DNA from: a virus
Taxonomy: Duplodnaviria; Heunggongvirae; Uroviricota; Caudoviricetes
IMG/VR virus record: IMGVR_UViG_3300047469_000094
Direction: 5' to 3' (one strand)
Length of the DNA stretch: 64,000 nt
The notes beneath the pieces were generated by a model. The model did no database searches and was not told the DNA's origin. It saw only the letters and a program-made list of their open reading frames with translations. Below are positions 8,163 to 59,351 of the stretch, piece after piece. Position numbers and translations under genes: made by a program. Every line of letters starts with the position of its first letter. The first letter of the stretch is position 1.

Positions 8163-8170
8163 GTTATACC
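8163..8170 (-). promoter_or_regulatory. -10-like promoter element (minus strand GGTATAAC + AGTAGTGCC box)
   Basis: Same 16-nt motif (GGTATAACAGTAGTGC) as at 24373 and 58306. Confidence 0.3.
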
Positions 8171-16384: not shown

Positions 16385-17008
16385 ATGTTTTACTTCGGCA
16401 ATATCACCGCTCACGGTGCCGTTTACCTGTATCCAGAGAAGCCCCCTCAAGATTTAATGTGGGTCGATCCAAAAGGCCATACAAATTTCTGGTGCTCAGT
16501 TCTTGGTGATTTATCTGGATCTAGTTCAAGTCCTCGTACTGAGACTCGTGAAACTCTCCCTCGCTCTGGAGAACCCTACAACTGGGTGGCCGGTGAGGCA
16601 GTACATACCCTGACTGGCAAGGTTCGTCTAGAACTGATTCCAAGTTCTGGAAAAGTAATCGTAGGTCAAATCCATGCGTATAAAGCTTCAAACCCATTCC
16701 TGATGGTTACTTGGTGGAATGGGGTTGCCCGAATCGATTTTCGAGAAGTACCTAATGGCCTGACCACTAAGGCTCTTTCAGTGCCGTGCCCTCTAGGAGA
16801 GTCGTTCGAGTACAAGATAGAGATAGATAAGTCAGGGATGCTGACCGTTACGATAAATGGACTTGGTTTTCAAACTCAAGTAAGCCCATTGTGGACTGCG
16901 TTCCCGTTCTACTTTAAAGCCGGTGCATATGTGATAGACAATTCTGGTCCGGAAACAGAAGGCGGCTGGGTAGTCTATGAAAACTTTGAAGTCTCTCACT
17001 TAAGCTAA
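16385..17008 (+). CDS. polysaccharide lyase family 7 (alginate lyase-like) protein
   Basis: PL7 signature blocks RTETRE (RxExR), QIHAY (QIH), YFKAGAYVID (YFKAGxY) in 207-aa ORF. Confidence 0.65.
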   Translation: MFYFGNITAHGAVYLYPEKPPQDLMWVDPKGHTNFWCSVLGDLSGSSSSPRTETRETLPRSGEPYNWVAGEAVHTLTGKVRLELIPSSGKVIVGQIHAYKASNPFLMVTWWNGVARIDFREVPNGLTTKALSVPCPLGESFEYKIEIDKSGMLTVTINGLGFQTQVSPLWTAFPFYFKAGAYVIDNSGPETEGGWVVYENFEVSHLS

Positions 17009-20985: not shown

Positions 20986-21190
20986 AACTACGATGACGAC
21001 TACGTCCTTTAGCCACGCTGGCTTGTTTGCGTTCCCGTTTACAGCTCTTTGGTGGAACTACGTGTACCCATTCCTTAGGAATCTCCACAATCTTTCCACG
21101 GCGCTTACGGTACGTCTTTCCCTCCACTTTTAGAAACATAGACAAGTCCTTGTTTTGATAGGCAAATAGAAAGGGCCCCGAAGGGCCCAA
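20939..21190 (-). CDS. hypothetical basic protein
   Basis: 83-aa ORF; 5' end overlaps terminator hairpin, true start may be internal. Confidence 0.35.
   Translation of the reverse strand: MGPSGPFLFAYQNKDLSMFLKVEGKTYRKRRGKIVEIPKEWVHVVPPKSCKRERKQASVAKGRSRHRSYVWRKDADSSDSRID
21173..21188 (-). terminator. rho-independent terminator (GGGCCC-UUCG-GGGCCC then UUUCUAUUU on minus strand)
   Basis: Perfect 6-7-bp GC hairpin with UUCG-type loop immediately 3' of tRNA-like element. Confidence 0.5.
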
Positions 21191-21253
21191 TGGCAGGATT
21201 CGAACCTGCGACTCACCAAAGTTGGTGTGCTCTACCAGTTGAGCTACATTCCT
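21186..21253 (-). tRNA. tRNA-like element, non-canonical (clear D-arm and T-arm; aberrant acceptor pairing and 6-bp/short-loop anticodon-like hairpin with TTT); possible pseudo-tRNA
   Basis: Minus strand AGGAATG-TA-GCTCAACTGGTAGAGC-A-CACCAACTTTGGTG..-GCAGGTTCGAATCCTGC-CATTGGG; own promoter (21265) and terminator (21173). Confidence 0.4.
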
Positions 21254-24372: not shown

Positions 24373-24381
24373 GTTATACCA
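24373..24381 (-). promoter_or_regulatory. extended -10-like promoter element (minus strand TGGTATAAC + AGTAGTGCGG)
   Basis: 16-nt motif shared with 8163 and 58306; upstream of 24073..24345. Confidence 0.4.
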
Positions 24382-30937: not shown

Positions 30938-32602
30938 TTATGCAGCCATTGGGGCCCGTCCAAATTTGTCAACCATAAGTATTTCTACTTCTGGCTGAGT
31001 TATTCCTCGGTGGACGGTCGCCACTTGCTTCCAGTTGATACCAGCTTCAACGTCGATGCGGATAGGGAAATCCATCCACTCAAACGTTTCCACCAGCAAA
31101 TCCTCCATCACATAGAAAGCAGTGTTTATCGCCTCTGCCATCCGGTGATACGGGACCTCAATAGCCAGCGAGTCATACACCGTGGTAAGGACCTTTGCAC
31201 CCATTGGTTTAACGGCTTCGTTGAGCTTGGAGAAACCGTAAAGACCTGTAACGGCAGAGCTGCTCTGACAACGAACGTTCTGTGAGTTACGTAGGGCCGC
31301 GTTGTATACCGCAGTCTTGCGAAAGATATTCATTGCTCCGAATTCTTTCTTAGACTGACCGTACATATTCATGACGTAGTTATTAGCCTTCGCCATTGCG
31401 TGTGAATCGTTTACGTACACTTCGATCAACGGGAACTCTTTGAAGTACATCGCAATAAGGCGGGTAGCCTCTTGCTCAGTAATGTTCAGGGTATGAGCAA
31501 TGCCTCTGACGCTAGATCCGTAGAGGATTCCAAAAGTTAGAGATTTTGCCCCTTGACGCAGGGCTTTAAATCGTTTTTTAAGAGCCAGGATAGCGGGATC
31601 ACTACCCTCGTAGTTGACGTGGAAAACCATCTCATCGTAGTCCACCCCATGCATCTGAGATGCGGAGTACGAATGGAAATCCTTGCCTTCCGCAACCGCC
31701 CTTAACAATTTTGGATCTCGGCATAGGAATGCCAGCATAACTACTTCTGCACCTGACTGATCCAGGCACAGGAATAGATTCCCAGGATCTACGGTGTAGC
31801 ACTGCTTGATACTGTACCCTAACTTGTTTTCAGTCTGGGTGTTAGGAATCTGAGTCATATTCGGGAACTGACCAGACGGCCTGAACGACGAAGTACCAAA
31901 CAACGAATAGCTACTGTGAACCCTACCATCACTCTTGACGAAATCAGGGATATACGTCTTGAAAAAAGTATTGTACACAGAATTAACGTTGTTCCGTCGG
32001 GCTAAGACCTTCAACCAATCCAGGTTATGAGTCTCAGCTAAAGCACTTAACGCATCACCATCAACGCTCGGCTCGTTCTTCTTGGTGTAGCTAGGAGGCT
32101 CAAAACCAAGATCCCCATAGAGAATCTTTACCAGTTCTTTGCCACTATCCGGATTGAACTTCGACCCAAACAAGGTGAAGATCTCATCTTCAAGTCGTGG
32201 CAACTCCTCCTCAATCTGAGCACACTGCTTCCTATTAAGGTCGCAATCGTACTTAATCCCATTGATCTCCATGTCGATTAAGAACTCGTGAGCAGGCATT
32301 TCTACCTGCTCCATGAAGTCTAGGATGGCTGGGGCTGACCGAACTTCCTGAACCCCCTGCGTGTAGTACATATACGGTTTCCGCTCAACCACCTTGGGGA
32401 ATACTGCGTTCAGTACCCCCGTTGTCGCCAAGCAGTCAACACCAGCATACTGGTAGAGATCCTCCGGAGGGAAGTCCTCATACGTGTTGTATACCGGTGC
32501 TTCTTCTTTTACTGCGACAGACTTTCCCATCCGTTTGTCCTCGATGGCTCCCCTGAGGAGAACCCTATTTCTGTAAACTCTGCGTCGGGCGTAGTTATCC
32601 AC
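30938..32602 (-). CDS. family A DNA polymerase, polymerase-domain subunit (carries Exo III-like motif and pol motifs A, B, C)
   Basis: YAGVDCLAT (Exo III-like Yx3D), motif A DQSGAEVVMLAF, motif B RQGAKSLTFGILYGSS, motif C VYDSLAIEV. Confidence 0.88.
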   Translation of the reverse strand: MDNYARRRVYRNRVLLRGAIEDKRMGKSVAVKEEAPVYNTYEDFPPEDLYQYAGVDCLATTGVLNAVFPKVVERKPYMYYTQGVQEVRSAPAILDFMEQVEMPAHEFLIDMEINGIKYDCDLNRKQCAQIEEELPRLEDEIFTLFGSKFNPDSGKELVKILYGDLGFEPPSYTKKNEPSVDGDALSALAETHNLDWLKVLARRNNVNSVYNTFFKTYIPDFVKSDGRVHSSYSLFGTSSFRPSGQFPNMTQIPNTQTENKLGYSIKQCYTVDPGNLFLCLDQSGAEVVMLAFLCRDPKLLRAVAEGKDFHSYSASQMHGVDYDEMVFHVNYEGSDPAILALKKRFKALRQGAKSLTFGILYGSSVRGIAHTLNITEQEATRLIAMYFKEFPLIEVYVNDSHAMAKANNYVMNMYGQSKKEFGAMNIFRKTAVYNAALRNSQNVRCQSSSAVTGLYGFSKLNEAVKPMGAKVLTTVYDSLAIEVPYHRMAEAINTAFYVMEDLLVETFEWMDFPIRIDVEAGINWKQVATVHRGITQPEVEILMVDKFGRAPMAA

Positions 32603-32973
32603 CCACCGGAAGCGCTAGAGAATTCGACGTCTGCATCTACGTCCATGAACCGCAATTCGTCTGCAAGATCATGTTCAGAATCGACGGTTTTATAGTAGCA
32701 CGTCTTATTACGACGGATCAGAATTTCGAAACGGCCTGGTTGTGTTTTGTGTTTACGAATACGACCAAGAAACCAACGACCATCGTAGCCGGAGGTGTTA
32801 CCCATGACAAACGAACCCAACGTCTGTTCGGTGTTCAAGTTACGAACCATGAACATACCGTGGATAGGCTTGGCCATAGTCCGTACTGCCTTTAGGACAC
32901 CTGGATCACCTTTGACGCCTGAGAAGCAGTACTGAGGCATCGCGTGCAGCGGTTTGATATTTCCACCACTCAT
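32509..32973 (-). CDS. hypothetical protein
   Basis: 154-aa ORF between the two polymerase parts. Confidence 0.45.
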   Translation of the reverse strand: MSGGNIKPLHAMPQYCFSGVKGDPGVLKAVRTMAKPIHGMFMVRNLNTEQTLGSFVMGNTSGYDGRWFLGRIRKHKTQPGRFEILIRRNKTCYYKTVDSEHDLADELRFMDVDADVEFSSASGGWITTPDAEFTEIGFSSGEPSRTNGWESLSQ

Positions 32974-33533
32974 TCGTAGATACCTCCCGAGCCCATGCCA
33001 CCCATACCAAAGTAATCGTCCATGTCACCATCATCCATCTGAGAGTTGCCACCGAACAAAGAGTTATCCCCGAACAGCATCTCGAAACGAAGATCCTGAG
33101 GATGCTCTACAAACTTCTCCTGGAAAGGATGATCCAAGGATGCCTCCCAGTACTCGGAGAGACCGAACAGACTATCCGTCCCGTTTAGCTCCAAGCCCTT
33201 GAGGAGATTCATAATCTCGCTTGGGTGCTTGCAGAACGCAGTTGCGTCTCGGCTACCACCGTGGATGAACAGTTCGTGATACACACGGTTAGGATCTACT
33301 GCCGAAGGGCTTGGCTGAATCTGACCGATAAAGTACGAACCGGCGTGGTCACCTTCAAGGGTGAACGCAGATACGCTGCTCTCATCTTCACGCAGCTTCA
33401 CCAGGAAGTAACCATCATTGCGTACAGCACCAAGACGAAGTTCGTACAGATCCCGATCTCGGCTAAGACCCATAGCTTTGAAACAAGCGAGTGGAACATT
33501 GGTCAGCGGCTTTACATTCTTGTATTCGAACAT
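32970..33533 (-). CDS. hypothetical protein with Gly/Met-rich C-terminus
   Basis: Start placed at internal ATG (M46 of ORF 32970..33668) with GAGGAAG RBS; upstream gene 33544..33978 ends just before. Confidence 0.5.
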   Translation of the reverse strand: MFEYKNVKPLTNVPLACFKAMGLSRDRDLYELRLGAVRNDGYFLVKLREDESSVSAFTLEGDHAGSYFIGQIQPSPSAVDPNRVYHELFIHGGSRDATAFCKHPSEIMNLLKGLELNGTDSLFGLSEYWEASLDHPFQEKFVEHPQDLRFEMLFGDNSLFGGNSQMDDGDMDDYFGMGGMGSGGIYE

Positions 33534-33543
33534 GGTTACTTCC

Positions 33544-33978
33544 TCAGACAATATCAAAGCCGGTTTCGGCGAAAGTTTTGGATTCAGATACGTTCCACTT
33601 GGAAGGGTAGCGACTAATGTCTTCCCCTTTCTCCAAGGAGCGCAATGCCTCCGCAAGAGCATGGTCATCCATCGCTTCTACTTCGTAGACCGTACCCAAG
33701 GTTCCGGTCAGATAAAGAGAACGACGATAGACTTCAAGTTTGTAGTCCGTGTCCTTACTCGGAGTAAGACTGATCTTCCCCAACCGCCAAGACCCGGTAA
33801 ACCGAAGACCTGTAAGGGGGAAAGTGTCATTGATCATTATCTCCGACATGAACATGAAGAAACCATCTGCACGTCTCGTCTTCTTGCGCAAGGCGTGGAG
33901 CATCGAACTGTTATGGTCGTGCCCCGTCTTAAAAAACGCATTCATCGGGATGTCCACCAACGGTACTATCTTGGGCAT
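33544..33978 (-). CDS. hypothetical protein
   Basis: 144-aa ORF. Confidence 0.5.
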   Translation of the reverse strand: MPKIVPLVDIPMNAFFKTGHDHNSSMLHALRKKTRRADGFFMFMSEIMINDTFPLTGLRFTGSWRLGKISLTPSKDTDYKLEVYRRSLYLTGTLGTVYEVEAMDDHALAEALRSLEKGEDISRYPSKWNVSESKTFAETGFDIV

Positions 33979-34047
33979 CAGAGCCTCCTAAGCTATGGAT
34001 TGCACTTTGTTTATACCAAAGAAAAGGCCCCTTAATGGGGCCCTTGT

Positions 34048-35052
34048 TTACCAGCGTTGGTTACGAGGAACGGGTCCTCGGTTACGTTGGTTCTGTGGTA
34101 GGTGAGGCCGAATGTCGTCCGTACGGTAAGTCACAGTACTCGCAGATCGAGCAATCTCATCGTAGAACTGGGTATGAAGTTCTTCCCCAAACCGATTAAT
34201 ACGACGAGAGGCTTCGTTACGAGAATTCTGCCTTCCCAAAGTCAACTCTCTAACAATCTCTCGATCTATTTCATCGACAATAGTCAGTTCTTGTGCCCTC
34301 GTCATCTGACGAAGAAACCCATTACGACCCATGTTGTCATTAATTTGACGTGCGGCCATATCGGCTAATTCCGCCATGGCACCCTGCCGAACATTACGCC
34401 ATTCCGCAGTAACGTCACCATCAAAATCCGCAGCTCGGAAGGTATCGTGGGGCCCACCAATAGTTGTGGTCATAGCTCCTATCGGTCTTTCGTTAGCCCA
34501 TCTATCAAATGCGTGGACTCCATATACCCCACCTACACGATCTGTCATCCGCGACAAACGAGCCAGGTGAATATCACGGATAGTCTGGCTTTCGACTAGA
34601 GTACTATCGTCGGTAACATCTGGGAAAGACGAGGGGTATGACGGTCCCAGGTAAACCTCTTGACAGAGATTTGATTGGTATCTCCCTACCCCCAAAGGCT
34701 TCTCCGCCATAGACTTGAATCGACCCATAGCCTCAAGGTTTGCCTCGTAGACGTTAGAAGACTTCTTTACCGCCTCCTCCCCGTCAACGTAAAAACTACA
34801 CACCGACAATCGATCCGGATCATTGACTGAACCTTGAACGAACCGGGCCCCTTTGATTGCACGCAGTAGTTTCACCGGAGAGCCTAGAAGCAGGCTCACT
34901 ACGTTGGTTGCCAACTTCTCTGTACCAGGTCCACCCGGGTCATGCATGATCGATACTACCCTTTTTACAGGGTCGTTCGAAAAGAAGTCCTTGGGAGTCC
35001 TAAGAGAGAGCCTCGCTTCCGGAGGCAAACTAAACAAGACGTTTGAATACAT
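34048..35052 (-). CDS. hypothetical protein
   Basis: 334-aa ORF inside the split-polymerase interval; no endonuclease or intein motifs seen. Confidence 0.55.
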   Translation of the reverse strand: MYSNVLFSLPPEARLSLRTPKDFFSNDPVKRVVSIMHDPGGPGTEKLATNVVSLLLGSPVKLLRAIKGARFVQGSVNDPDRLSVCSFYVDGEEAVKKSSNVYEANLEAMGRFKSMAEKPLGVGRYQSNLCQEVYLGPSYPSSFPDVTDDSTLVESQTIRDIHLARLSRMTDRVGGVYGVHAFDRWANERPIGAMTTTIGGPHDTFRAADFDGDVTAEWRNVRQGAMAELADMAARQINDNMGRNGFLRQMTRAQELTIVDEIDREIVRELTLGRQNSRNEASRRINRFGEELHTQFYDEIARSASTVTYRTDDIRPHLPQNQRNRGPVPRNQRW

Positions 35053-35058
35053 CTCAGA

Positions 35059-35358
35059 TCACTCTGTGGTTAGTGGGAAGGGTTTGACCATTTCTCGGTA
35101 GTCGCTAAGAACTTGGGTACCGAACTTAATGCTGGCGGTGATGTCAACGTGGACTACTTCTCCCGGACACCTCTCAGGCTGAAAGAAGTGAACACCAAGG
35201 ACAGACCTACGAAGATCCATAGGACTGCCCATGACATACGAGAAGGCCGGTGCCAAGAACCCGCCATCAGCAGAGTAGACACTGGCCTCGATAATCGCAT
35301 CTTCTACATGTAGCCTTAACTCAAGAGGCTTACTCAGCCTCATCGTAGATATCATCAT
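35059..35358 (-). CDS. hypothetical protein
   Basis: 99-aa ORF. Confidence 0.4.
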   Translation of the reverse strand: MMISTMRLSKPLELRLHVEDAIIEASVYSADGGFLAPAFSYVMGSPMDLRRSVLGVHFFQPERCPGEVVHVDITASIKFGTQVLSDYREMVKPFPLTTE

Positions 35359-35990
35359 CGAAAGTTGGCCCGTTGGAGTATTTCACTAGGCCTAGACGAT
35401 ATCACAGCTAAGTAAAGTTCGGAAGAGGTTACTGAGCAACGGACGTGTTCAGGGTCATCTGGAACTGGCTGCATGTCGAATCTGATCCGAAGATCTGCCC
35501 CAGAAATCTCATGGGTAACCCCAAGCCCTTTCGCCTTTAAGTTAATAAAACGGACAAGCCTATTACGCAGCTCCCGTTCAAACGCAGCCGCATACTGAGT
35601 ATCACTCATCATCTCTGCGCTAACGATAGTGCTTATCCATTCCGCTTTGAGGTGGACAGGGCTAGGGGCACGGGGGAACCCCTTCGTAACCGTGGTTTCG
35701 AGGGTGTAATCAAAGCCATTCCCCGGGTCTTCAAAAAGAAGGTAGGGACCAAGAACACCCCTTAGCGCACGAGGATTGACGACAGTGTTAATCCGTACGA
35801 GCTGAACGTTGAAACCATCCACAGGCGTAACACTTATCGCACGTCGGTAGTAGTCTCCTCGGAAACTACCCAACCCCAGATACTTGATCGTCTCTCCAGG
35901 CTTTGGTTTTAGGAAGAGTTTCATCCCCGGTAGTTCTCCCGCGTGTAAGCGTTCTGTTCGAAGCCCCGGGAATTGGTGTCCTGAAGCCAA
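35355..35990 (-). CDS. hypothetical protein
   Basis: 211-aa ORF. Confidence 0.5.
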   Translation of the reverse strand: MASGHQFPGLRTERLHAGELPGMKLFLKPKPGETIKYLGLGSFRGDYYRRAISVTPVDGFNVQLVRINTVVNPRALRGVLGPYLLFEDPGNGFDYTLETTVTKGFPRAPSPVHLKAEWISTIVSAEMMSDTQYAAAFERELRNRLVRFINLKAKGLGVTHEISGADLRIRFDMQPVPDDPEHVRCSVTSSELYLAVISSRPSEILQRANFR

Positions 35991-36171
35991 CCGTCGTTAA
36001 AGAAATTGCCCTCGTAGCTGTTATCCACTAAGTGAACCCCGTGGACCAGAGAAAATCTGATCCTTGGATTCTTAACAATGATTCCTGAGTACTGATTCTG
36101 AATCTCTACCAGAGAGCCGTCGGCACTCGCCTTACGGATGTAGAAGTTACTCCTCTCGTATATCCTCAGCT

Positions 36172-37530
36172 TTATTCGTCGCATTCCCCCACCTCCTCTT
36201 CCTCGGACTCTTCTTCGCCTTCAACCACCTTCTTCCTCTTGGTCAGGGCAGGGAGCTTGTCTTCGTACCCGCCAAGACCACTCTCAGGTAAGAAGTCCCA
36301 GACAGCCTTCTTCAGACTGTAGTTGTTCTTCAACCCAGAGTTGATCGCGTGCAGTAACAGCAACGTATCGAACGCAGCGTTAACCACACGGACACCGGTA
36401 GTAACGAAGGTGTAAATGATATCGAACTTGATGTTGTGACCAACCTTAGGTCGTTGAGACAGAAGCAATTCTGCAATCAACGGCCAAGCTTCGTTTGAAT
36501 CGTAGAAGTTGTTGGCCCTGTGCCACAGAGGGAATACCAATGCCTTAATCACGCCATCCGCAGGGTCCGTGTATCCGAACTGAGCAGTGATGATCTTTGC
36601 GTTAGCCGCCCAGGCATCAAGGCTCGTCGTCTCCAAGTCGAAGCTGATGATCTTGTTCGCCGGAAGGTCGTTAAGGATCTTGATCATGGCTCTGACGTCA
36701 GTCATAGATCGAGCAATGGTGATCCGAGTTGAAGCTTCGGCCAGAGCATCGTCAAGACTTACTACCTTCAGGTCGCCACGAGCAATCCGTGCAGCCTTAG
36801 CGAAGTCACGATCAAGGACTTCGAAGTAGTCCGGACCCCATTCTTTACCTGAGGCATTCTGACGGATCATCGTCAAGGACTTAGGGTGGAGAGTGATCAC
36901 CGCAGTACCGTAGTCAGTCGTGTGGAATTCACCACGGTTAGACGAACAGGTGGCCTTGATACCCAGAGCACTGATCGAGTTCGTAGACATCACGATGATC
37001 GCCTTAGGCTTGATCCTGCGAAGTTCCTCGTGAAGGTAGGGAGTACATGGTTTGATCTTGGTGGTTGTCACGGTTTGACCCCGAAGGTCAGACGCTTGCG
37101 GCAAGCACTTAAGAGTACTGACTACGGCGTAGCTCAACCGTTGAAAATATTTCTGAGCCAGGAAGCCAATGATGTCCCGGTAGATACGCTCCATTTCATC
37201 AGAGGATTTGTACATCTGGGCTAAAGCGTTGTGGTCCTGAACTATGACGATATCGACCTGTTGAGTGGTCAAAGTCACTTGTTTAGGACGACGACTGGAT
37301 GGGCACAGACCACAGGCCGAGTTGCAGTACCGATCCTGGATCTTGGAGAAGTCTTCCTTCTCGATGATCTGCTTCCGGATCGAAGGCATCATCTTCCCGA
37401 TCTCGGCTGCCTTGGCGTACAGCTCGTCCAAGCTCAGCTCGTTCGTCTTCTTGGCTCTTGGTTTCTTAACTTTTCCGGATGGGGTGGCCGTATCTCCCAG
37501 GCCCCCGATCGGTTTGAAGTTAGTAGACAT
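36172..37530 (-). CDS. DNA polymerase N-terminal subunit: UDG-superfamily-like domain fused to 3'-5' exonuclease (Exo I and Exo II motifs)
   Basis: Exo I ISFDLETTSLD, Exo II HNIKFDIIY; upstream half has family-4-UDG-like blocks (KCLP, TLHPKS); acidic C-terminal tail; no Exo III in this ORF. Confidence 0.8.
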   Translation of the reverse strand: MSTNFKPIGGLGDTATPSGKVKKPRAKKTNELSLDELYAKAAEIGKMMPSIRKQIIEKEDFSKIQDRYCNSACGLCPSSRRPKQVTLTTQQVDIVIVQDHNALAQMYKSSDEMERIYRDIIGFLAQKYFQRLSYAVVSTLKCLPQASDLRGQTVTTTKIKPCTPYLHEELRRIKPKAIIVMSTNSISALGIKATCSSNRGEFHTTDYGTAVITLHPKSLTMIRQNASGKEWGPDYFEVLDRDFAKAARIARGDLKVVSLDDALAEASTRITIARSMTDVRAMIKILNDLPANKIISFDLETTSLDAWAANAKIITAQFGYTDPADGVIKALVFPLWHRANNFYDSNEAWPLIAELLLSQRPKVGHNIKFDIIYTFVTTGVRVVNAAFDTLLLLHAINSGLKNNYSLKKAVWDFLPESGLGGYEDKLPALTKRKKVVEGEEESEEEEVGECDE

Positions 37531-37578
37531 GGTGAAAACCTCTAAGTGTTATGGGGTGTTACATCATTGTTATACCAC

Positions 37579-37587
37579 ACATAGGTC
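37579..37587 (-). promoter_or_regulatory. extended -10-like promoter element (minus strand TGGTATAAC + AATGATG)
   Basis: ~45 nt upstream of start codon of 36172..37530. Confidence 0.4.
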
Positions 37588-37860
37588 GATGTGGGGAAGT
37601 CTGTTTTTTAGGAAACGATCTGTAAGGTCTCTTAGAGCCACGACTGGATCTAGGAGCTACCCTTGCCAGGGGTGAAGTTAGATCGTTGCTCAGATCGCAT
37701 CTCAGGAGCTCACAGTGCGTAGGAAGGGGTCTCAGGGTGATCGTAGGTATGGTCGTAGTAGAATACTGCGGCGAGGCCCTTCAAAGCACCTCTGAAACCA
37801 TTGATCTAGAGCCTGCGCGGAAAGAGGCCTTGATCTACGTGGCCTCCAGAGGCATGTCTA

Positions 37861-38520
37861 AGCCGTAGACAAACCATGTCTACGCTAAGAGGCCCGTGCT
37901 AGAGCCTTTAGACAAAATATTAGACATCTAGACAAAGTTTTGTCTAAGTCATGTCTACGGCTGCAGGCCGCGGCCCGTATGGCTTTGAGGGGTGCGCTAG
38001 ACATTTAGACATGAATTTTCTCCGCACAAGCACTAGGGCTCAGAAACCAGGAAATAAAAAACAAGAAATGGAGACAGTCATATACATACTATATATATTT
38101 ATATATTTATAACTATATATATGTACCCATGACATGGCTATGGCTGTTGTGTAAAGAATGTTGAACACGAGGTTGTAGAGTTGTTTTTTTATTTGTGTGT
38201 TTCCAAGCTCTGGGTGCTCGTGCGGAGAAAATTCATGTCTTTTTGTCTAAAAGAGGCTGAAAGCCACGGCCCGCCTGGGCTGCAGCCGTAGACATGACTT
38301 AGACATGAACTTTTGGAAATGTCTAAAACTTTGTCTAATCGCTCTAGGACGGGCCTCTCAGCGTAGACATGACTTTGTCTAGTTTTGTCTAAAAATGTCT
38401 AAAAGTAGAAAAGTCATGTCTTGATGTCTTAGATAATGAGAACGAATATCAACAAGTAGTCGTAACCCTGTTCGACATCTGACTCAGGGTGTTGAGAATA
38501 CTTTACACATTTAGACATGG
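37861..38520. repeat. iteron array (about 20 copies of TAGACAT / ATGTCTA-type 7-8-mers in both orientations) flanking an AT-rich core and a large imperfect palindrome; candidate origin of replication or centromere-like site
   Basis: ORF-poor 1.1-kb region; repeats gtagacaaaccatgtctac, tagacatctagacaaagttttgtctaagtcatgtctac and others; AT core atatacatactatatatatttatatatttataactatatatat; GC-rich inverted repeats at 37961-37983 and 38267-38291. Confidence 0.6.
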
Positions 38521-38638
38521 GCGGAGGGGATTGGATAGGATTGGACTATGACTGATCGTTGATCAATAGAAGATTGCTATTCTACTAGCTAAAAGAAAAG
38601 AGGACCGAAGTCCTCTCTCTTGACCCTGAGGTCAGTTC

Positions 38639-38836
38639 TTAACGAACGAATTCGCAGAACGAAGATTTTGCAATCTGAAGCATGTCGTTGTCAGAGTAGG
38701 AACGCTTGACTTGGCGAGCTTCCTCTCGGGTCAACATTGGGCCGAGGCGCACACGGAGTGTACCACGTTCAACCAGGAAGTACGAATTAACTCGTGGAGC
38801 AGGGGTAGTAACGGCGTTGGTACGAGGAGTAGTCAT
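38639..38836 (-). CDS. hypothetical small protein
   Basis: 65-aa ORF. Confidence 0.4.
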   Translation of the reverse strand: MTTPRTNAVTTPAPRVNSYFLVERGTLRVRLGPMLTREEARQVKRSYSDNDMLQIAKSSFCEFVR

Positions 38837-38902
38837 GTCTATAAACTCAAGAGGTCGTGGGGGATTCCACGCCTATGAGTCTATGGTAGTGACCGGGTTT
38901 TG

Positions 38903-39256
38903 TCAATACGGCTGAAGAGTATCGTACAGCACAGACCAACCTTCGCCTTTCGCAGTTACAACGTCAGCGGTGAGTAGACCGTTGTTGAAGTATGTCTTGA
39001 GAAGGATCGCTACCTCGCCATTGAACATACACGGCATGTCTTTACCGATAGGAGTTCTCTTCTCCACCACGTTGTCTTCATCCCTGGTCACAACTTCGTT
39101 CAAAGCACTGATCATGTATGCGTTCATGCTTTGACGACCCGCACGGGCCAGGACTGCGATACGATCCCGGAGACCGTCTTCGAGACGAACTACGAACTTG
39201 TCAGCAGTCCGAGACTGACCATTCATTACACGAGGAGTACGGGTTGGGTGAGTCAT
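38903..39256 (-). CDS. Arc/MetJ-type ribbon-helix-helix DNA-binding protein
   Basis: FVVRLEDGLRDRIAVLARAGRQSMNAYMISALNEVV matches the Arc-like RHH consensus (fnlRlp.elrerl...a...grSmNaei). Confidence 0.65.
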   Translation of the reverse strand: MTHPTRTPRVMNGQSRTADKFVVRLEDGLRDRIAVLARAGRQSMNAYMISALNEVVTRDEDNVVEKRTPIGKDMPCMFNGEVAILLKTYFNNGLLTADVVTAKGEGWSVLYDTLQPY

Positions 39257-39265
39257 GGTTATTCC

Positions 39266-39826
39266 TTAGAACTTAAAGGGTACGAGGGCAAGGGTCTCTT
39301 TAGCGGAGGCAAGTTCAGCACGAAGCTGACGAATGGTCTCCTCCTGATCCGACATGTGACTTAACGCCGCGTTAAGAGTAGTGTTTGCCACGTCATAGTC
39401 ACGACGCAGGACATACTTACCACTCTTGTCTTCGGTGACCTCCCCACGCTTGTTAATGCCGTAACGATCAGGGTAAGGAATTGCCCGGAGAGACTCTTTG
39501 CCACAATGCTTCAACCAGAACTCAGTCAACGCTTGACCGATGATCTCTCCTACTTGGTCCTGAAGTTTTTCAGGCTCTGGGAGATACGAGATGCGGCCCC
39601 AGCCGCGAACTCGCAGAAAAGCTTCAACGCCTGTCTCTTCAACAGCGTCTTCAACGTGGTTGTCAGCAACCATCGTGCTAGTAGAATCATTTAGGTACCC
39701 ATACTTGTTAAACGTGAATGGAGGGGTGTACAGGTCCAACGCTCGCTGGAATACAGTTTGCTCGCTCATACTCGTTGTACCTTGATCTAGTGATGTCTGG
39801 TGGAGTGAAGAACGCACGGTCCTCAT
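39266..39826 (-). CDS. hypothetical protein
   Basis: 186-aa ORF. Confidence 0.5.
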   Translation of the reverse strand: MRTVRSSLHQTSLDQGTTSMSEQTVFQRALDLYTPPFTFNKYGYLNDSTSTMVADNHVEDAVEETGVEAFLRVRGWGRISYLPEPEKLQDQVGEIIGQALTEFWLKHCGKESLRAIPYPDRYGINKRGEVTEDKSGKYVLRRDYDVANTTLNAALSHMSDQEETIRQLRAELASAKETLALVPFKF

Positions 39827-40556
39827 CCCATTTGTAATAGGTGATACGGTGAGAGACCGTACTCTTGCAGATGTCTAGTTTGAAGTGCTTGAGGATATCC
39901 GGAATAAACCCAGTGAAGCCCCGGACAGTAAGCTTACCCTTCTTCTCTTTAAAGGCGTCTTCAGCAGACATACCTGCACGGATAAGTCTACGAATTGTCT
40001 CTACCGCTAACGGTGGTTTGAACTGGGCATGGAGCTTAGCCAGGTTATCCGTTACTCCATTGACCGTGTAGACTTTGTAGCGACCGATTTTTTGATGAGC
40101 TGCACGAGTATGGGGTTGTGCCGGGGAGAAAGCCTCATCCACCGATATCCCCCGTTTGATTCGCTTGAATGCAGTATCCCGGGAGATGCTCAGGTTGAAG
40201 TGACGGATTATCTGAGTAGTGGTACCTCGGAAACCTTTATAAGTGAATCTCTCACCCACAGGAGGTACGAAGAAAACTTCTTCCAGAGACTGACCCTTTT
40301 CCATGCGCCAGTGTACCGTTGAGGTACACATATCGAGTTTGAAGTGTCTCAAGATCTCCTCGATAGTTCCCTTGAAGCCACGTACTTCGAAGACAGATCC
40401 ATGGCGGAAGCGAACATCCCCCAAGGCTTCCAGCATGTACTTCAAAGTGTTCCGGTTGACACCAAGGGCCTCCTGAATTTCTTTCTTTGAACGACCCTCG
40501 GCAGCCATAGCTCGGATCGTCTTCTCTACATCACACTGGAAGGCCTCTACTGCCAT
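39708..40556 (-). CDS. putative DNA-binding protein with N-terminal HTH and three tandem ~50-aa repeats
   Basis: Repeats VRGFKGTIEEILRHFKLDMCTST / YKGFRGTTTQIIRHFNLSISRDT / VRGFTGFIPDILKHFKLDICKST. Confidence 0.55.
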   Translation of the reverse strand: MAVEAFQCDVEKTIRAMAAEGRSKKEIQEALGVNRNTLKYMLEALGDVRFRHGSVFEVRGFKGTIEEILRHFKLDMCTSTVHWRMEKGQSLEEVFFVPPVGERFTYKGFRGTTTQIIRHFNLSISRDTAFKRIKRGISVDEAFSPAQPHTRAAHQKIGRYKVYTVNGVTDNLAKLHAQFKPPLAVETIRRLIRAGMSAEDAFKEKKGKLTVRGFTGFIPDILKHFKLDICKSTVSHRITYYKWDEDRAFFTPPDITRSRYNEYERANCIPASVGPVHPSIHV

Positions 40557-51085: not shown

Positions 51086-51355
51086 TTACCGATAACGTCG
51101 GTGACGATACTTGTGCAGATGATCTGCTTGAGCCTTCGTCACTTCGACCGCTTCTGGTCCGAAGGTCAGGTTGAGACGAACTGCCCCGGTGTCGTATGCA
51201 CGACGGCAGGCATGGAATTCGTTCTCAGCCATCAGAGTACCGAGCAGTGGTTTTTTACCCCACTTGTCTCTCCAGTAGTCTGGGTAGATTGCGAAGTAAC
51301 GGGATTCCCGTTCCGATTTTGGTTTCGATTTACGCTCTTCTTGCATTGTGGTCAC
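51086..51355 (-). CDS. hypothetical basic protein
   Basis: 89-aa ORF; terminator hairpin GGCCTC-CGAA-GAGGCC at 51063-51078. Confidence 0.45.
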   Translation of the reverse strand: MTTMQEERKSKPKSERESRYFAIYPDYWRDKWGKKPLLGTLMAENEFHACRRAYDTGAVRLNLTFGPEAVEVTKAQADHLHKYRHRRYR

Positions 51356-54173
51356 CGAGCACCCTGATGTATTCAGGGGCAGTATTGATGTCGAACTTTA
51401 GAACCCGACGCTGCACGCCATCTGCCATTACCGCTCTAGGTTGTACCCCAGAAGAGTCGGCGGAGACGCACCATGGTTCCTCCTTAAGGAGCTCAATGAT
51501 TGCTTTCTTAGAGAACTCCTCACGGGCAGAGTTTACCAGTTCTTTTTCAACAATGCGAAATACTTCTGCAATCCAAACATATAAATTGTCACCATCGACA
51601 CTTACATGGACTCCAGAGATTTTCGGGTGACCTTCTCCAGCCTGCAAGCCCTCTACAACTTGGAAGAACTGAGCCAAGACGTTTTCATCTTCCTGGTCAG
51701 CCTCATCCTCTGCCGAAGCTTGACGGATGTACTCTTTCAGATCGAAACCTGGGAAGTACTTCTCTGCCAAACCTTGACCGAACTCAGCAATCATCGCCCA
51801 GTTAAGGGAAACACGTTGATGGACGCCACGGTCACGCAGTTCAGTCGTGAAGACTTGCATACGTTCTACCATCTCACTCCAGTTGGCTTGAGACGCTTCG
51901 AGAATCCACTCCAGACCAATGGCGGAGAGATCCATTCTGCGACCTTCGATCCAACGGAAGGTGTTCTCCAATTCCCGATCTGCGATTGGGATTCGGATAG
52001 GGATGCAACGTTGACGCAATGCACTATCACTGAACTGATCCTGGCCAGCAAAGATAAACGTAGACAGAACCTTCTGCTCACGAATACCGAACTCTTCCTT
52101 AGTACCCAAGGTACGACCGGAGCGTTGATACCAAGAACGGAACGTGCCGTACATCTCTACAGTATCTTTGTCCGCACGGATCTCATCGATGACAACCGGC
52201 AAGCTTGCGTAGTAGGCCAACTTCCGGAAGAAGCCAACGCTACGTTTCATGCCAGAGATAGTAGTGTAGCCACTGTCACCGGTACCGTAGAGACTTGCCA
52301 ACCACTTAGCGATGTACGTCTTTCCGCGACCATGACGACCCCAAAGGAATAGGAACGGGAAGTCACGACGCCAGTCAAAGATCCGATCTGAGTAAGCATT
52401 GGACTTTGCCCAGGCTAAAGCAGTGAGTGCAACGCCGATATCCCCCAAGTTCTCCGCCAGCTTCTGAACGAAGTCACGTTCAAGCTCTGCACGAGAATCG
52501 CGGTCAAGGTCAATAACCATGTCAGGGATATCTGACTCGGAGCCGCCATGATCGTCGCTGAGAGGCACCGGCTTGATACCTGAGGAAGCGGACCCGCCAA
52601 CCCAGATCACACCGTCATCGCCACGCTTGGAGACGTCACCGGCATCACTCACGAAGCAGTCCCGGAACAACCAGCCATGAAACTCACGCAGGTGACCAAC
52701 CGTGCTTGGCAGGTAGACTTCTTTCTCACTTACGCCTTGATAGACGAAGTCCCAGAGCAGAGCAAGGTCATCTTCCCGGCCATAGAACGAACCGTCGAGG
52801 GCGTTAGCCACCAAGGATTTGAACGACTTAAGGGATACTTTCATGTCCGAGGACACCTTGGTTGGGCGGCTGTGCTTACCGTCTTCACGAACCAATACTA
52901 CTTCTCGTTCACGACGGTCAGACTGGATGTAGATGTTCTTCAACCGGATGACGAAGTTGGTCAGCTTGGACTTGACCGGAACACCTTCTTTGTAGCGGAT
53001 ACGGTAGTAAGCGTTGCCCGCTTCTACGATAGTACCGTTGGCCGAATCACCTTCGGAAGTAGCCACTGCAACGGTAGAACCTGCGATCTCCATCAAGCCT
53101 TGTTGACCAGGAGCCATATCGGCACGAGAGTACTTGGCAATGATTTCCTGGAGATCCTGGCCTGATCGAAGAAGATCGTCGATATCTTCTGCTTTCTTCT
53201 CAGGGTTATCCGAGCGAGGAAGCATCACCTGACTCAGGGACTTGAAGCGCATCTTGGCCTTGAGTACCTTCTCACGGTACTTATCTCCACCATCATCCGG
53301 ATCGAAGATCGTGATGACTTGCTTATCGTGGCAGTTCTCTACGAGCCACTCAACTTGAGCACCAGAGATCTGACCGATACATGCAATGACTGCCCAACCT
53401 TCAGGCAATTGTGCAAGCACAGATAGACGGTCGTTCTCGCCTTCTACCACTACAATAGTGCTAGCCGCTTTTACGGTGTTCTGACCGTAGAAGATCCATT
53501 GCTGGTGCTTGAACTTGTTAGCGACTTGATATTCAAGCTGCTTGGTCGGGTCCTTGAATGTGAAGTGACCAACCTGTCCACCAACCATGTGAGGGTAGAT
53601 GAACGCCTTGCGTGGGAGGAAATCACCCTTGCCAGATTTTGCTACCAGGCCTGTACTTGCCAGCAGCTCGTCTTCGAACCCGACGCTCCGCAAGTAGTCA
53701 ACCAGGCCACCGTCTGACCATCCAATGGCTGCTTGCTCAATGATGTCATCCGAATGACCACGCACCTGGCGTTGGTACTCCGCAGGACTTTTACCCCCAA
53801 GGACCGCATAAGGGTTGGTATCGTCGATGAAGCATTGTCGATAATAGTCCGCTGCAAGTTTGGTAACCTCCCGTATTGCGTTGTAGTTCGAAGGTAACTC
53901 GATGCCGTACTCTTTGGCCAGAGCCCGAGCTGCATCTACCGCAGATACATCGTGTGCCTTTGCGACGAACTCAATTACGTCACCGCCCTCGTCACACGAG
54001 AAGCAGTGCCAGCGTTCACCGCCAGGAGCCACCTTAAAGCAGTCCATGTGCTTACAGAAAGGGCAGGTCTTATCCTCTGGCTCAGACCATTCCCCGGCTT
54101 CGATGAGCGTAATACTGGCTACATCTAGCAGTACCTTGCTCAGCGGAACCTGTGCTTTGATTGTTTCAAACAT
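51330..54173 (-). CDS. DNA primase-helicase (DnaG-type zinc-binding + TOPRIM primase fused to P-loop helicase domain)
   Basis: CHC2 zinc finger CPFCKH..HCFSC, TOPRIM VVVEGENDRLS...DPDDGGD, Walker A GRHGRGKTY in C-terminal half. Confidence 0.85.
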   Translation of the reverse strand: MFETIKAQVPLSKVLLDVASITLIEAGEWSEPEDKTCPFCKHMDCFKVAPGGERWHCFSCDEGGDVIEFVAKAHDVSAVDAARALAKEYGIELPSNYNAIREVTKLAADYYRQCFIDDTNPYAVLGGKSPAEYQRQVRGHSDDIIEQAAIGWSDGGLVDYLRSVGFEDELLASTGLVAKSGKGDFLPRKAFIYPHMVGGQVGHFTFKDPTKQLEYQVANKFKHQQWIFYGQNTVKAASTIVVVEGENDRLSVLAQLPEGWAVIACIGQISGAQVEWLVENCHDKQVITIFDPDDGGDKYREKVLKAKMRFKSLSQVMLPRSDNPEKKAEDIDDLLRSGQDLQEIIAKYSRADMAPGQQGLMEIAGSTVAVATSEGDSANGTIVEAGNAYYRIRYKEGVPVKSKLTNFVIRLKNIYIQSDRREREVVLVREDGKHSRPTKVSSDMKVSLKSFKSLVANALDGSFYGREDDLALLWDFVYQGVSEKEVYLPSTVGHLREFHGWLFRDCFVSDAGDVSKRGDDGVIWVGGSASSGIKPVPLSDDHGGSESDIPDMVIDLDRDSRAELERDFVQKLAENLGDIGVALTALAWAKSNAYSDRIFDWRRDFPFLFLWGRHGRGKTYIAKWLASLYGTGDSGYTTISGMKRSVGFFRKLAYYASLPVVIDEIRADKDTVEMYGTFRSWYQRSGRTLGTKEEFGIREQKVLSTFIFAGQDQFSDSALRQRCIPIRIPIADRELENTFRWIEGRRMDLSAIGLEWILEASQANWSEMVERMQVFTTELRDRGVHQRVSLNWAMIAEFGQGLAEKYFPGFDLKEYIRQASAEDEADQEDENVLAQFFQVVEGLQAGEGHPKISGVHVSVDGDNLYVWIAEVFRIVEKELVNSAREEFSKKAIIELLKEEPWCVSADSSGVQPRAVMADGVQRRVLKFDINTAPEYIRVLGDHNARRA

Positions 54174-58305: not shown

Positions 58306-58314
58306 GTTATACCA
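58306..58314 (-). promoter_or_regulatory. extended -10-like promoter element (minus strand TGGTATAAC + AGTAGTGCAAG)
   Basis: Third copy of 16-nt GGTATAACAGTAGTGC motif. Confidence 0.4.
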
Positions 58315-58583: not shown

Positions 58584-59351
58584 ATGTCTACCAGCCTCTA
58601 CTACGACCTTATCAACCGAACGCCGCTTCTTACAAAAGAAGAGGAGAAGGCTCTCCTCGTTACCTTCAAGTCTGAATCGTCTACCGCTCTACAAAAGAAA
58701 CGCGCTCGTGATCGTCTGATCGAGGCCAATCTTCGCTTCGTGTTCAAGACCGCGAAGAAGTATGCACGCCGTTACCCAGCTTCGTTTGAGGATCTTCTCA
58801 GCAGCGGTAACGAAGGTCTTATGGTTGGCGTCGATAAGTATAGCATCGAATCTGGCAATCGCCTTCTGACCTATGCGGGCTGGTGGATTCTCCAGCGCAT
58901 CCTGAAAGAAATGTCCAAGCTTCGTCTTGTCGCCCTGCCTATTTGGAAACAACAACTGGCTGCGAAGATAGCAAGGCTAAAAGAAGGAGATGAAGATATC
59001 ACCTTTGAGCAGATCCTAGCCGCATGCCCAGGACATCCAGAGAAGGACGTCCGGGAGCTTTCAGAGACTGCGTTCCTCACTTGCTTTATCGAAGACTTGT
59101 CGGACACCGAACTGGTGGACATAGAGTTTCAGGTAGAAGATGAAATCGATGATCAGCGCCTCCATCAGCGCATTTCAGAACTCAGCGATATTCACCGCCA
59201 AGTGTTGATGATGTCTCTAGGTTTTGACGATGGTCTGGAGAAGTCTATTAAAGAGATCTCCAAGACCACCGGTCTTACCCGAGATGAAGTCAATGCTCAC
59301 AAACGAGAAGCGTTGGAGACTCTGCGTTCAGGTTATGGCGTAGAGCTATAG
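58584..59351 (+). CDS. RNA polymerase sigma-70-family factor (phage-encoded)
   Basis: Region-2-like DLI..GNEGLMVGVDKY and region-4-like HTH (LS..HRQVLMMSLG...SIKEISKTTGLTRDEV). Confidence 0.8.
   Translation: MSTSLYYDLINRTPLLTKEEEKALLVTFKSESSTALQKKRARDRLIEANLRFVFKTAKKYARRYPASFEDLLSSGNEGLMVGVDKYSIESGNRLLTYAGWWILQRILKEMSKLRLVALPIWKQQLAAKIARLKEGDEDITFEQILAACPGHPEKDVRELSETAFLTCFIEDLSDTELVDIEFQVEDEIDDQRLHQRISELSDIHRQVLMMSLGFDDGLEKSIKEISKTTGLTRDEVNAHKREALETLRSGYGVEL

Follow-up and report, generated by a model that had tools for sequence, protein, structure and literature searches.

The stretch of viral DNA analysed here, 64,000 nt of the IMG/VR record IMGVR_UViG_3300047469_000094 (Caudoviricetes) and referred to below as the window, is a portion of a large-phage genome with six tRNA genes, and it contains a repeat-rich non-coding element that is a candidate origin of replication. 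The element occupies a gap of 1,108 bp (37531-38638) bounded by two minus-strand genes. One of these encodes a UDG-like domain fused to a 3'-5' exonuclease (36172..37530, minus strand; Pfam DNA_pol_A_exo1 and UDG) and forms, with the polymerase half at 30938..32602 (Pfam DNA_pol_A), a split family-A DNA polymerase, while the other encodes a small conserved protein of 65 aa, here termed orf65 (38639..38836, minus strand). A preliminary description of this DNA had set the element between the exonuclease gene and an Arc-like gene (38903..39256). The exonuclease side stands, but the Arc-like gene is not the immediate neighbour, because orf65 and an intrinsic terminator intervene. The same description reported about 1.1 kb without a convincing gene, and indeed the gap holds only short open reading frames (ORFs), none of which is conserved in relatives. 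In the direction of transcription, the gap starts with the terminator (38596..38619, minus strand; GAGGAC-TTCG-GTCCTC followed by a T run), which ends the upstream operon and has identical or similar hairpins in three of the relatives introduced below (L020, L018, and L021), and it ends with a promoter-like box, GGTATAACAATGATG (37562..37576, minus strand), which belongs to the UDG-exonuclease/polymerase operon, is located approximately 30 nt upstream of the ATG, and is conserved in relatives.

The most conspicuous component of the element is a cluster of short boxes. The exact sequence TAGACA, read on either strand, occurs 20 times in 37850-38520 (~670 bp), compared with 0.34 occurrences predicted from the rest of the window (Poisson P = 1e-28), and 24 AGACA cores can be recognized with the consensus T-AGACA-(T/A)(G/A). 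The earlier count of about 20 copies in both orientations is thus confirmed, although the array is larger than first described. In the whole window, TAGACAT was found 24 times (7.6 ± 2.4 in shuffled sequences), with 12 of these copies in 37854-38518, and TAGACAW 43 times (16.6 in shuffles), 22 of them there. Elsewhere in the window, the box is present at background frequency, and several copies are merely ATG-TCT start codons. Neighbouring boxes are mostly spaced by 8-12 bp and are arranged as direct doublets (TAGACATTTAGACA) or as head-to-head pairs (TAGACA-N4-6-TGTCTA). The left outer array (37854..37957) comprises eight TAGACA(T/A) boxes in both orientations with mostly 8-12 bp between them, including head-to-head pairs such as TAGACAAACCATGTCTA, and most have mirror partners on the right. 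It is followed by a left inner doublet (37998..38027, plus strand), TAGACATTTAGACATG, whose two boxes lie 8 bp apart and point to the centre of the element, and then by AATTTTCTCCGCAC. The right inner doublet, GTGCGGAGAAAATTCATGTCTTTTTGTCTA (38220..38249, minus strand), is the mirror image of the left one, the two forming inverted repeat I2. The right outer array (38289..38431) contains 11 AGACA-core boxes in both orientations, again mostly 8-12 bp but up to 33 bp apart, and a lone TAGACAT box lies further out (38512..38518, plus strand).

Between the two inner doublets lies an AT-rich core of 49 bp (38078..38126), a candidate DNA-unwinding element and the only stretch of the 64 kb in which a 40-nt window reaches 90% A+T. 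The almost pure A/T string quoted in the preliminary description corresponds to 38080-38123 (44 nt, 91% A+T), and two direct 14-mers, ACTATATATAT(T/G)TA, start at 38088 and 38112 (direct repeat D10). The GC-rich inverted repeats that had been described as bracketing the core are real (37955-37977 and 38267-38291) but represent one segment of a much larger dyad. This is an interrupted palindrome of 516 nt (37866..38381; inverted repeats I1, I2, and I5), which consists of two ~200-nt arms and a ~120-nt spacer with the dyad centre near 38123, and of which the 64 kb hold a single copy. Three nested arm pairs can be distinguished, 37875-37969/38277-38371 (95 nt, 84% complementary), 37998-38033/38214-38249 (36 nt, 89% complementary), and 38035-38061/38185-38211. 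When 37850-38400 was folded as single-stranded DNA, one hairpin spanning 37866-38381 was obtained, with a free energy of -158.8 kcal/mol versus -57.9 ± 4.8 for shuffled sequences (z = -20.9). Most of the boxes of the left arm are mirrored by a partner in the right arm. From the outside to the centre, each arm shows the same order, i.e., outer boxes, a GC box (CTACGGCTGCAG...), an inner doublet directed toward the centre, an A- or T-tract, and the ~120-nt spacer with the AT-rich core. The left GC box (37955..37997) includes GGCTGCAGGCC (37959-37969), which has the form GGC-N5-GCC, and a strongly conserved block, GGCTTTGAGGGGTGCGC (37981-37997). The right GC box (38255..38291; direct repeat D6) includes GGCTGAAAGCC (38255-38265), also GGC-N5-GCC, and CGGCCCGCCTGGGCTGCAGCCGTAG. 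The A-tract, AAATAAAAAAC (38052..38062), is mirrored by the T-tract, GTTTTTTTATTT (38183..38194), and is conserved in relatives.

A graded series of relatives was assembled from a homologue search with the exonuclease protein and one DNA-pattern scan, which yielded five further loci that span the element and show 71-75% identity in this protein where it was determined: L011 (NCBI, a 168.7-kb contig; 71% exonuclease identity), L018 (an ENA food metagenome; 73%), L021 (an ENA food metagenome; an attributed identity of about 74%), and L020 and L022 (JGI metagenomes). Food metagenomes are the source of several relatives. Scans of IMG/VR and the JGI metagenomes seeded with the UDG-exonuclease protein returned only ~22%-identical matches or none, a low-complexity peptide having saturated the scan; two conserved DNA patterns found nothing in IMG/VR, and a third found L019 and L020 in the JGI metagenomes. 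No DNA match was detected among 50,697 deposited phage records, in either near or distant search mode, or among 72,556 plasmids. The nearest deposited phages, Salmonella phage Arash and Vibrio phages D69, D148, and D181, are approximately 40% identical in the exonuclease protein. Arash has been called an "orphan" (PMC10585845), and the paper describing it says nothing on origins, promoters, or genome ends (PMC10585845). JGI metagenome contigs of 97.5 kb and 165 kb carry the same sequence as the window.

The architecture of the element is strongly conserved in this series. Each of the five loci has 16-23 AGACA cores with the same symmetry and folds with z = -20 to -33, and clustering of TAGACA is also significant in L011, L018, and L021 (P = 1e-19 to 1e-26). 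The unique AT-rich core has an equivalent in L011 and L018, and a matching core is found at the same place in L020, L021, and L022. The distances of the boxes from this core are nearly superimposable in all six sequences; for example, boxes in the window lie at -144/-136, +93/+101, +148, +159, +170, and +223 (the right series extending from +148 to +245), and those of L011 at -151/-143, +92/+100, +147, and +221. The position of the left inner doublet relative to the core is kept in L011, L018, L020, and L021. In a four-way alignment, box columns were 79% identical versus 57% elsewhere, and a strain that is 97.9% identical over 6.9 kb (125 mismatches) shows zero differences in the 1,108-bp gap. 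The position of the element is also fixed, as it lies between orf65 (or the genes downstream of it) and the UDG-exonuclease gene in six of six spanning loci.

Co-evolution of the two arms was examined in a five-locus alignment with 194 predicted arm-to-arm pairs and 500 shuffles. In 79 of the 194 pairs, both sides have changed and yet remain complementary, whereas the shuffles gave a mean of 43 and none of the 500 reached 79. Of the arm cells, 89% pair, compared with 29-47% when the partner column was slid by one to three positions. The co-evolving pairs include the spacers between boxes; such complementarity goes beyond the need of a simple array of protein sites and suggests intrastrand pairing in the cell. 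Mismatches in the arms show no strand bias (55 G.T versus 45 A.C, p = 0.37), which implies that the symmetry belongs to the duplex rather than to an RNA or to one particular strand.

More distant relatives retain the layout and differ in the box. In three of four such relatives, including Arash, the arrangement between the primase and polymerase genes is kept and TGGCCA or TGTAAC is used instead of TAGACA. In L016 and L025 (47% protein identity), the primase gene is directly followed by an equivalent unique AT-rich core, which lies two genes upstream of the exonuclease gene and has inverted TGGCCA(A) and CTGTCCAG boxes on its flanks (5-7 copies versus 0.03-0.06 expected). Arash has an AT-rich patch ~1.5 kb upstream of the exonuclease gene, with six TGTAAC/GTTACA boxes around it. 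Clustering of the exchanged boxes in these three genomes is significant (P = 1e-10 to 1e-13). A layout that is kept while its box is clade-specific is suggestive of a cis site evolving in step with a binding protein of the phage.

With regard to its genomic setting, the element is placed between the gene for a DnaG-type primase (51330..54173, minus strand), the C-terminal part of which has matches to primase and primase/helicase families, and the genes of the split polymerase; a helicase and a nuclease are encoded in the same module. The window further encodes a DinG-like helicase, a PD-(D/E)XK nuclease, an SNF2 helicase, PhoH, NAD-salvage enzymes, and a sigma-70-like protein (58584..59351, plus strand). 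The two polymerase halves are ~3.5 kb apart (32603-36171), and the small genes between them vary between close strains, forming a variable cassette inside the replication operon; in parts of 27.3-31.7 kb, the identity of a close relative, L006, to the window drops to 88-94%. Within the tRNA cluster (19.6-22.6 kb), an Rfam tRNA-like match of 42.6 bits at 21189-21250 (minus strand) was not called by ARAGORN.

Between the element and the promoter-like box lies the most conserved non-coding block of the gap, CCGCGCAGGCTCTAGATCAATGGTTTCAGAG, which contains two TAGATCAA(T/G)GG boxes (37798..37842, minus strand) and is near-invariant in the window, L011, L013, L015, L018, L019, and L020. In L011, L018, and L021, a third direct copy of the TAGATCAA block is found beyond the far side of the element. 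These boxes are possibly a site for a second conserved factor, perhaps of the host, or part of a small RNA. More generally, the blocks CCGCGCAGGCTCTAGATCAATGGTTTCAGAG, GAGCTCCTGAGA, and ACCCCTGGCAAGGGT in 37585-37850 are near-invariant across diverged relatives, and fold covariation in this part is only weak. The same side of the gap also has seven GATC sites in ~220 bp (37617-37832), compared with a genome average of 5.6 per kb; this cluster is one of three in the window, the others being located at ~12.0-12.3 kb and 36.6-37.0 kb. Control of the Dam/SeqA type was considered and rejected, given that the cluster is one of three and that the host may not be enterobacterial.

The promoter-like box belongs to a family. 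The sequence GGTATAAC occurs six times in the window, always on the minus strand, versus 1.4 expected, and five intergenic minus-strand copies (3215-3222, 8163-8170, 24373-24380, 37569-37576, and 58306-58313) share GGTATAACA(A/G)T(A/G)GTGC without a common -35 element. A GTGGTATAA(C/T) box precedes the exonuclease gene even in the distant L025 and L026, and Arash has a similar GGTATAACAATAG just downstream of its origin-like element.

Several proteins encoded upstream of the gap could bind the element. The Arc-like gene (38903..39256, minus strand) encodes a ribbon-helix-helix (RHH) protein of 117 aa (Pfam Arc, 2.6e-7; PDB 3qoq, AmrZ, 1.8e-8), which shares SRTADKFVVRL with AmrZ, the DNA-reading beta-strand DKFVVRL being identical (PDB 3qoq). 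In AmrZ, GGC half-sites are recognized by Lys18, Val20, and Arg22, and a thymine facing Val20 would cause a clash; in addition, the known AmrZ sites have little common consensus (PMC3325190). Whether this specificity carries over to the phage protein is uncertain. The preliminary description had proposed the Arc-like protein as the factor that binds the TAGACAT repeats, which is not supported as stated, since a reading strand identical to that of AmrZ predicts GGC and TAGACA is a misfit; the GC boxes are the more plausible target. The geometry of the left GC box equals that of the AmrZ operator half-sites (PMC3325190), and the GGC-N5-GCC sites at 37959 and 38255 are two of only 11 in the window. 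Relatives with an Arc-like gene have two or three such sites in the element, whereas L011, which lacks the gene at the equivalent position, has none and retains the repeats. As this contrast comes from one genome, it is only a lead, and the homologue search with the Arc-like protein (seven matches) was too insensitive to show a copy elsewhere in L011. The Arc-like protein may therefore act on the element, probably not via the repeats. In L011, a TnpB/OrfB_IS605-type gene (1228-1779) is inserted upstream of the element, where other relatives carry the Arc-like gene. An alginate lyase gene (16385..17008, plus strand) together with the AmrZ-identical reading strand hints at a Pseudomonas-like, alginate-producing host.

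Two other proteins are candidates for binding the boxes themselves. The first is orf65, which is highly conserved and adjoins the element in relatives of the TAGACA clade; its AlphaFold model (a beta-hairpin and two helices) is poor (predicted local distance difference test score of 57), too poor for a fold search. The second is a protein of 282 aa with four tandem helix-turn-helix modules and without a nuclease domain (39708..40556, minus strand). Both accompany the element in each TAGACA-clade locus tested (L011, L018, and L020), and neither has a match in the distant loci searched (L016, Arash, and Vibrio D69). The repeats of the 282-aa protein are of the type GF.G....I..HF.L and resemble the DNA-binding modules of homing endonucleases; the versions in relatives are shorter (two modules, 157-164 aa), and a PDB search with the protein gave no meaningful match. 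Together with the C-terminal part of the primase, orf65 and the tandem helix-turn-helix protein are candidate clade-specific initiators.

Repeats and an AT-rich region are common hallmarks of the origins of bacterial replicons (Rajewska et al. 2012, cited in PMC7145576). Given its repeated boxes and mirror symmetry, a unique core suited to melting, a place in the replication module, the strength of the constraint, and a box that differs between clades, we consider the element, on balance, to be probably a bidirectional lytic replication origin of this phage clade that is bound by a clade-specific protein. The earlier proposal of an origin is thereby retained as the best-supported computed reading, in view of the boxes, the core, the dyad, the replication module, and the layout kept in relatives, short of proof and with neither a skew switch nor an initiator found. 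The following course of events may be envisaged. Briefly, a phage-encoded, clade-specific DNA-binding protein would occupy the 24 TAGACA boxes. Since neighbouring boxes are mostly 8-12 bp apart, many would lie on roughly one face of the helix, and the bound protein would build two mirror-image nucleoprotein arrays on the arms, with the inner doublets of both sides pointing to the centre. Strain from the arrays would then open the 49-bp AT-rich core. Once the ~120-nt spacer became single-stranded, the ~200-nt arms could pair within each strand and stabilize the opening. The DNA thus exposed would be accessible to the phage primase(-helicase) and to the split family-A polymerase, which are encoded on either side of the element, so that replication would start there. 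An AmrZ-like RHH protein bound to the GGC-N5-GCC sites of the GC boxes is a possible modulator of this process.

Several observations weigh against an origin. GC skew, suggested earlier as a whole-genome check, was computed for the window and revealed no switch of polarity at 38.1 kb, only a local positive blip at 36-40 kb; the genes run in one direction, so the absence of a switch is only weak evidence. All flanking genes are on one strand, and transcription therefore does not diverge from the site. No Rep, lambda O-like, or DnaA-like initiator family was recognized among the neighbouring proteins, and neither the DnaA box TTATCCACA (with up to one mismatch) nor a strict IHF site WATCARNNNNTTR occurs in 37000-39500. 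These two sites are frequent in, but do not define, enterobacterial origins. The boxes, at 6-8 bp, are far shorter than classical iterons of 17-22 bp and occur in both orientations, and one relative with 51% identity, L026, has no such element in the equivalent gap. Furthermore, the co-evolution of the arms rests on five sequences from about three lineages, and template switching between quasi-palindromic arms could homogenize them mechanically without selection. In either case, selection or template switching, the arms must meet physically.

The element is also a recurrent breakpoint of assembly. At least ten independent assemblies (Logan with k = 31, SPAdes, and MEGAHIT) end inside the element or at its edge, the break falling at window position 37904 in two samples and 38362 in another, in the AT-rich core in L015, and just past the core in L023 and L024; contigs that end at the element include L012-L015, L017, L019, L023, and L024. 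With arms of only 77-89% complementarity, the breaks cannot be put down to exact inverted k-mers, and it is possible that they reflect either hairpin artefacts of library preparation or real branched or hairpin molecules. In consequence, the element can fragment metagenomic genomes of this phage group.

A more specific form of the proposal, tentative and rather unlikely in our estimate, is that the element represents a distinct class of phage origin, in which the co-evolving palindrome of ~0.5 kb must fold into hairpins (a cruciform) after melting, a new clade-specific protein (orf65 or the tandem helix-turn-helix protein) reads TAGACA, and other clades have exchanged box and protein together (TGGCCA and TGTAAC). 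If so, the assembly breaks would stem from genuine replication intermediates with branches or hairpins. Nothing comparable came up in a literature search for dyad-symmetric iteron origins in phages.

Among explanations that do not invoke initiation, a transcriptional control region survives best, although it appears unlikely. According to this explanation, the boxes are an operator array at which a repressor or activator (the RHH, tandem helix-turn-helix, or orf65 protein) silences, insulates, or times the polymerase operon. The position between a terminator and the promoter of the replication operon fits this, as do the DNA-binding proteins, two or three in nearly all relatives, whose genes lie just upstream, and the seven weak sigma-70-like matches in 37400-38950 (versus 2.0 expected). 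RHH proteins in general, including AmrZ (PMC3325190), bind short direct or inverted sub-sites cooperatively. However, the boxes begin ~280 bp upstream of the promoter box and span 660 bp, far beyond the need of an operator, and it is hard to see what the unique core, the 200-nt co-evolving arms, and the complementarity of the spacers would contribute to repression. GGC, not TAGACA, is what the AmrZ-like reading head would be expected to recognize, and the promoter family has no TAGACA nearby elsewhere in the window. A direct promoter function is likewise disfavoured, since the downstream operon has its own promoter box (37562-37576) and the five family copies have no TAGACA at -35; TAGACA as a -35 element was rejected for the same reason and because few boxes have a -10 partner. 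Another candidate, a cluster of primase recognition sites, was rejected as well. TGTC contains GTC, the trinucleotide of the T7 primase, but a conserved box of 6-8 bp exceeds a trinucleotide signal and other clades use TGGCCA.

It is very unlikely that the element is some other DNA-processing site, such as a pac site, a recombination hotspot, or a telomere-resolution site. The pac site of P1 has short repeats in two groups around the cleavage site, and the assembly ends described above also speak for such a site. Nevertheless, the element lies inside long contigs, at ~73 kb of the 169 kb of L011, 59 kb of the 200 kb of L016, and 56 kb of the 157 kb of L025, and seven contigs cross it and continue into unique flanks. 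The centre of the palindrome is imperfect, no terminase, recombinase, or protelomerase was found in the larger ORFs of the window, and the element belongs to the replication module rather than adjoining packaging genes. A hairpin telomere or protelomerase target was rejected on these grounds, i.e., the internal position in contigs of 157-200 kb, the imperfect centre, and the lack of a protelomerase in the large ORFs of the window.

The partition site that the preliminary description had offered as an alternative is not supported and seems most improbable. Here, the RHH protein would coat the repeats as at a centromere, and a phage genome maintained like a plasmid would be segregated by a motor protein. 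Type Ib/II sites (parC-ParR, ParG, and omega) typically consist of short repeats in arrays to which RHH proteins bind, and the RHH protein of the window matches PHROG families labelled "partition protein ATPase". On the other hand, no ParA/ParM-like ATPase was detected among the ORFs scanned in the window, which covers 64 kb of a ~165-kb genome, and the 186-aa gene beside the RHH gene has no Pfam or PHROG match and no Walker A motif by eye. Another gene and the terminator lie between the RHH gene and the repeats, unlike the arrangement of a par operon, and L011 keeps the element without an RHH gene at that position. In addition, the gene content (tRNAs, polymerase, primase, and sigma factor) is that of a large lytic phage, and the 72,556 plasmids gave no DNA match. 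Just as improbable is a selfish or neutral palindromic insertion, resembling a miniature inverted-repeat transposable element, or a structured non-coding RNA gene, to which the long inverted arms around an AT-rich centre, the direct TAGATCAA block copies flanking the whole element in L011, L018, and L021, and the weak covariation in 37577-37860 could point, but the element is present once in 64 kb with no match in the phage and plasmid collections or elsewhere, keeps its position and box positions in all relatives down to ~71% protein identity, has no Rfam match, and shows arm mismatches whose lack of strand bias argues against an RNA or a single-strand-specific structure.

To our knowledge, hardly any large lytic phage has a known replication origin, and we know of no origin proposed for the present family (Arash, Vibrio phages D69, D148, and D181, and many metagenomic relatives). 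The exact boxes, AT-rich core, GC boxes, promoter, and terminator, together with a short list of candidate binders, provide a precise target for direct testing, and the box exchanged between clades within a constant layout is a natural experiment by which each box may be paired with its protein. As an origin built from repeated boxes and an unwinding element, the candidate would be unusual in its size, the co-evolution of its arms, and the exchange of its box between clades.

Compared with known systems, the element most closely recalls origins with iterons or initiator boxes, such as the O iterons of lambda ori, the alpha octamers of P4 ori and crr, and the DnaA boxes of oriC (general features cited in PMC7145576), in its cluster of boxes beside an easily melted AT-rich region and its position in or beside replication genes; the P4 octamers and DnaA boxes are likewise short and present in both orientations. 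It differs from them in having no recognized initiator of the Rep, O, alpha, or DnaA type and no DnaA boxes or strict IHF sites in 37000-39500, and in having 24 boxes of 6-8 bp over 660 bp, placed on two ~200-nt arms that are mutually complementary, spacers included, and co-evolving. The RHH partition sites (parC-ParR of R1, ParG sites, and the omega heptads of pSM19035) resemble it in their short repeats, direct and inverted, which abut or are about one helical turn apart, and in the nearby RHH gene. Unlike at those sites, however, the scanned ORFs of the window include no partner NTPase, the repeats do not lie over the RHH promoter, and the predicted specificity of the RHH protein is GGC rather than TAGACA; moreover, neither an AT-rich core nor long complementary arms characterize par sites. 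The GGC-N5-GCC geometry of the amrZ1 half-sites in the AmrZ operators of Pseudomonas aeruginosa (PDB 3qoq; PMC3325190) occurs once in each GC box (37959 and 38255), although in the phage the two candidate sites are inside the element and not in a promoter operator. Finally, inverted short initiator boxes around an AT-rich centre are also found in the oriL and oriS of herpes simplex virus 1 (HSV-1) and in the core origins of simian virus 40 and polyomavirus. In these eukaryotic-virus origins, the symmetry serves the bidirectional loading of two helicase complexes, and HSV oriL is a long palindrome that is hard to clone and assemble. The viruses and their proteins are unrelated to those of the phage, in which the primase(-helicase) is a mere candidate for an initiator-helicase, and the phage arms are much longer (~200 nt), imperfect (77-89% complementary), separated by a ~120-nt spacer, and furnished with many more boxes.

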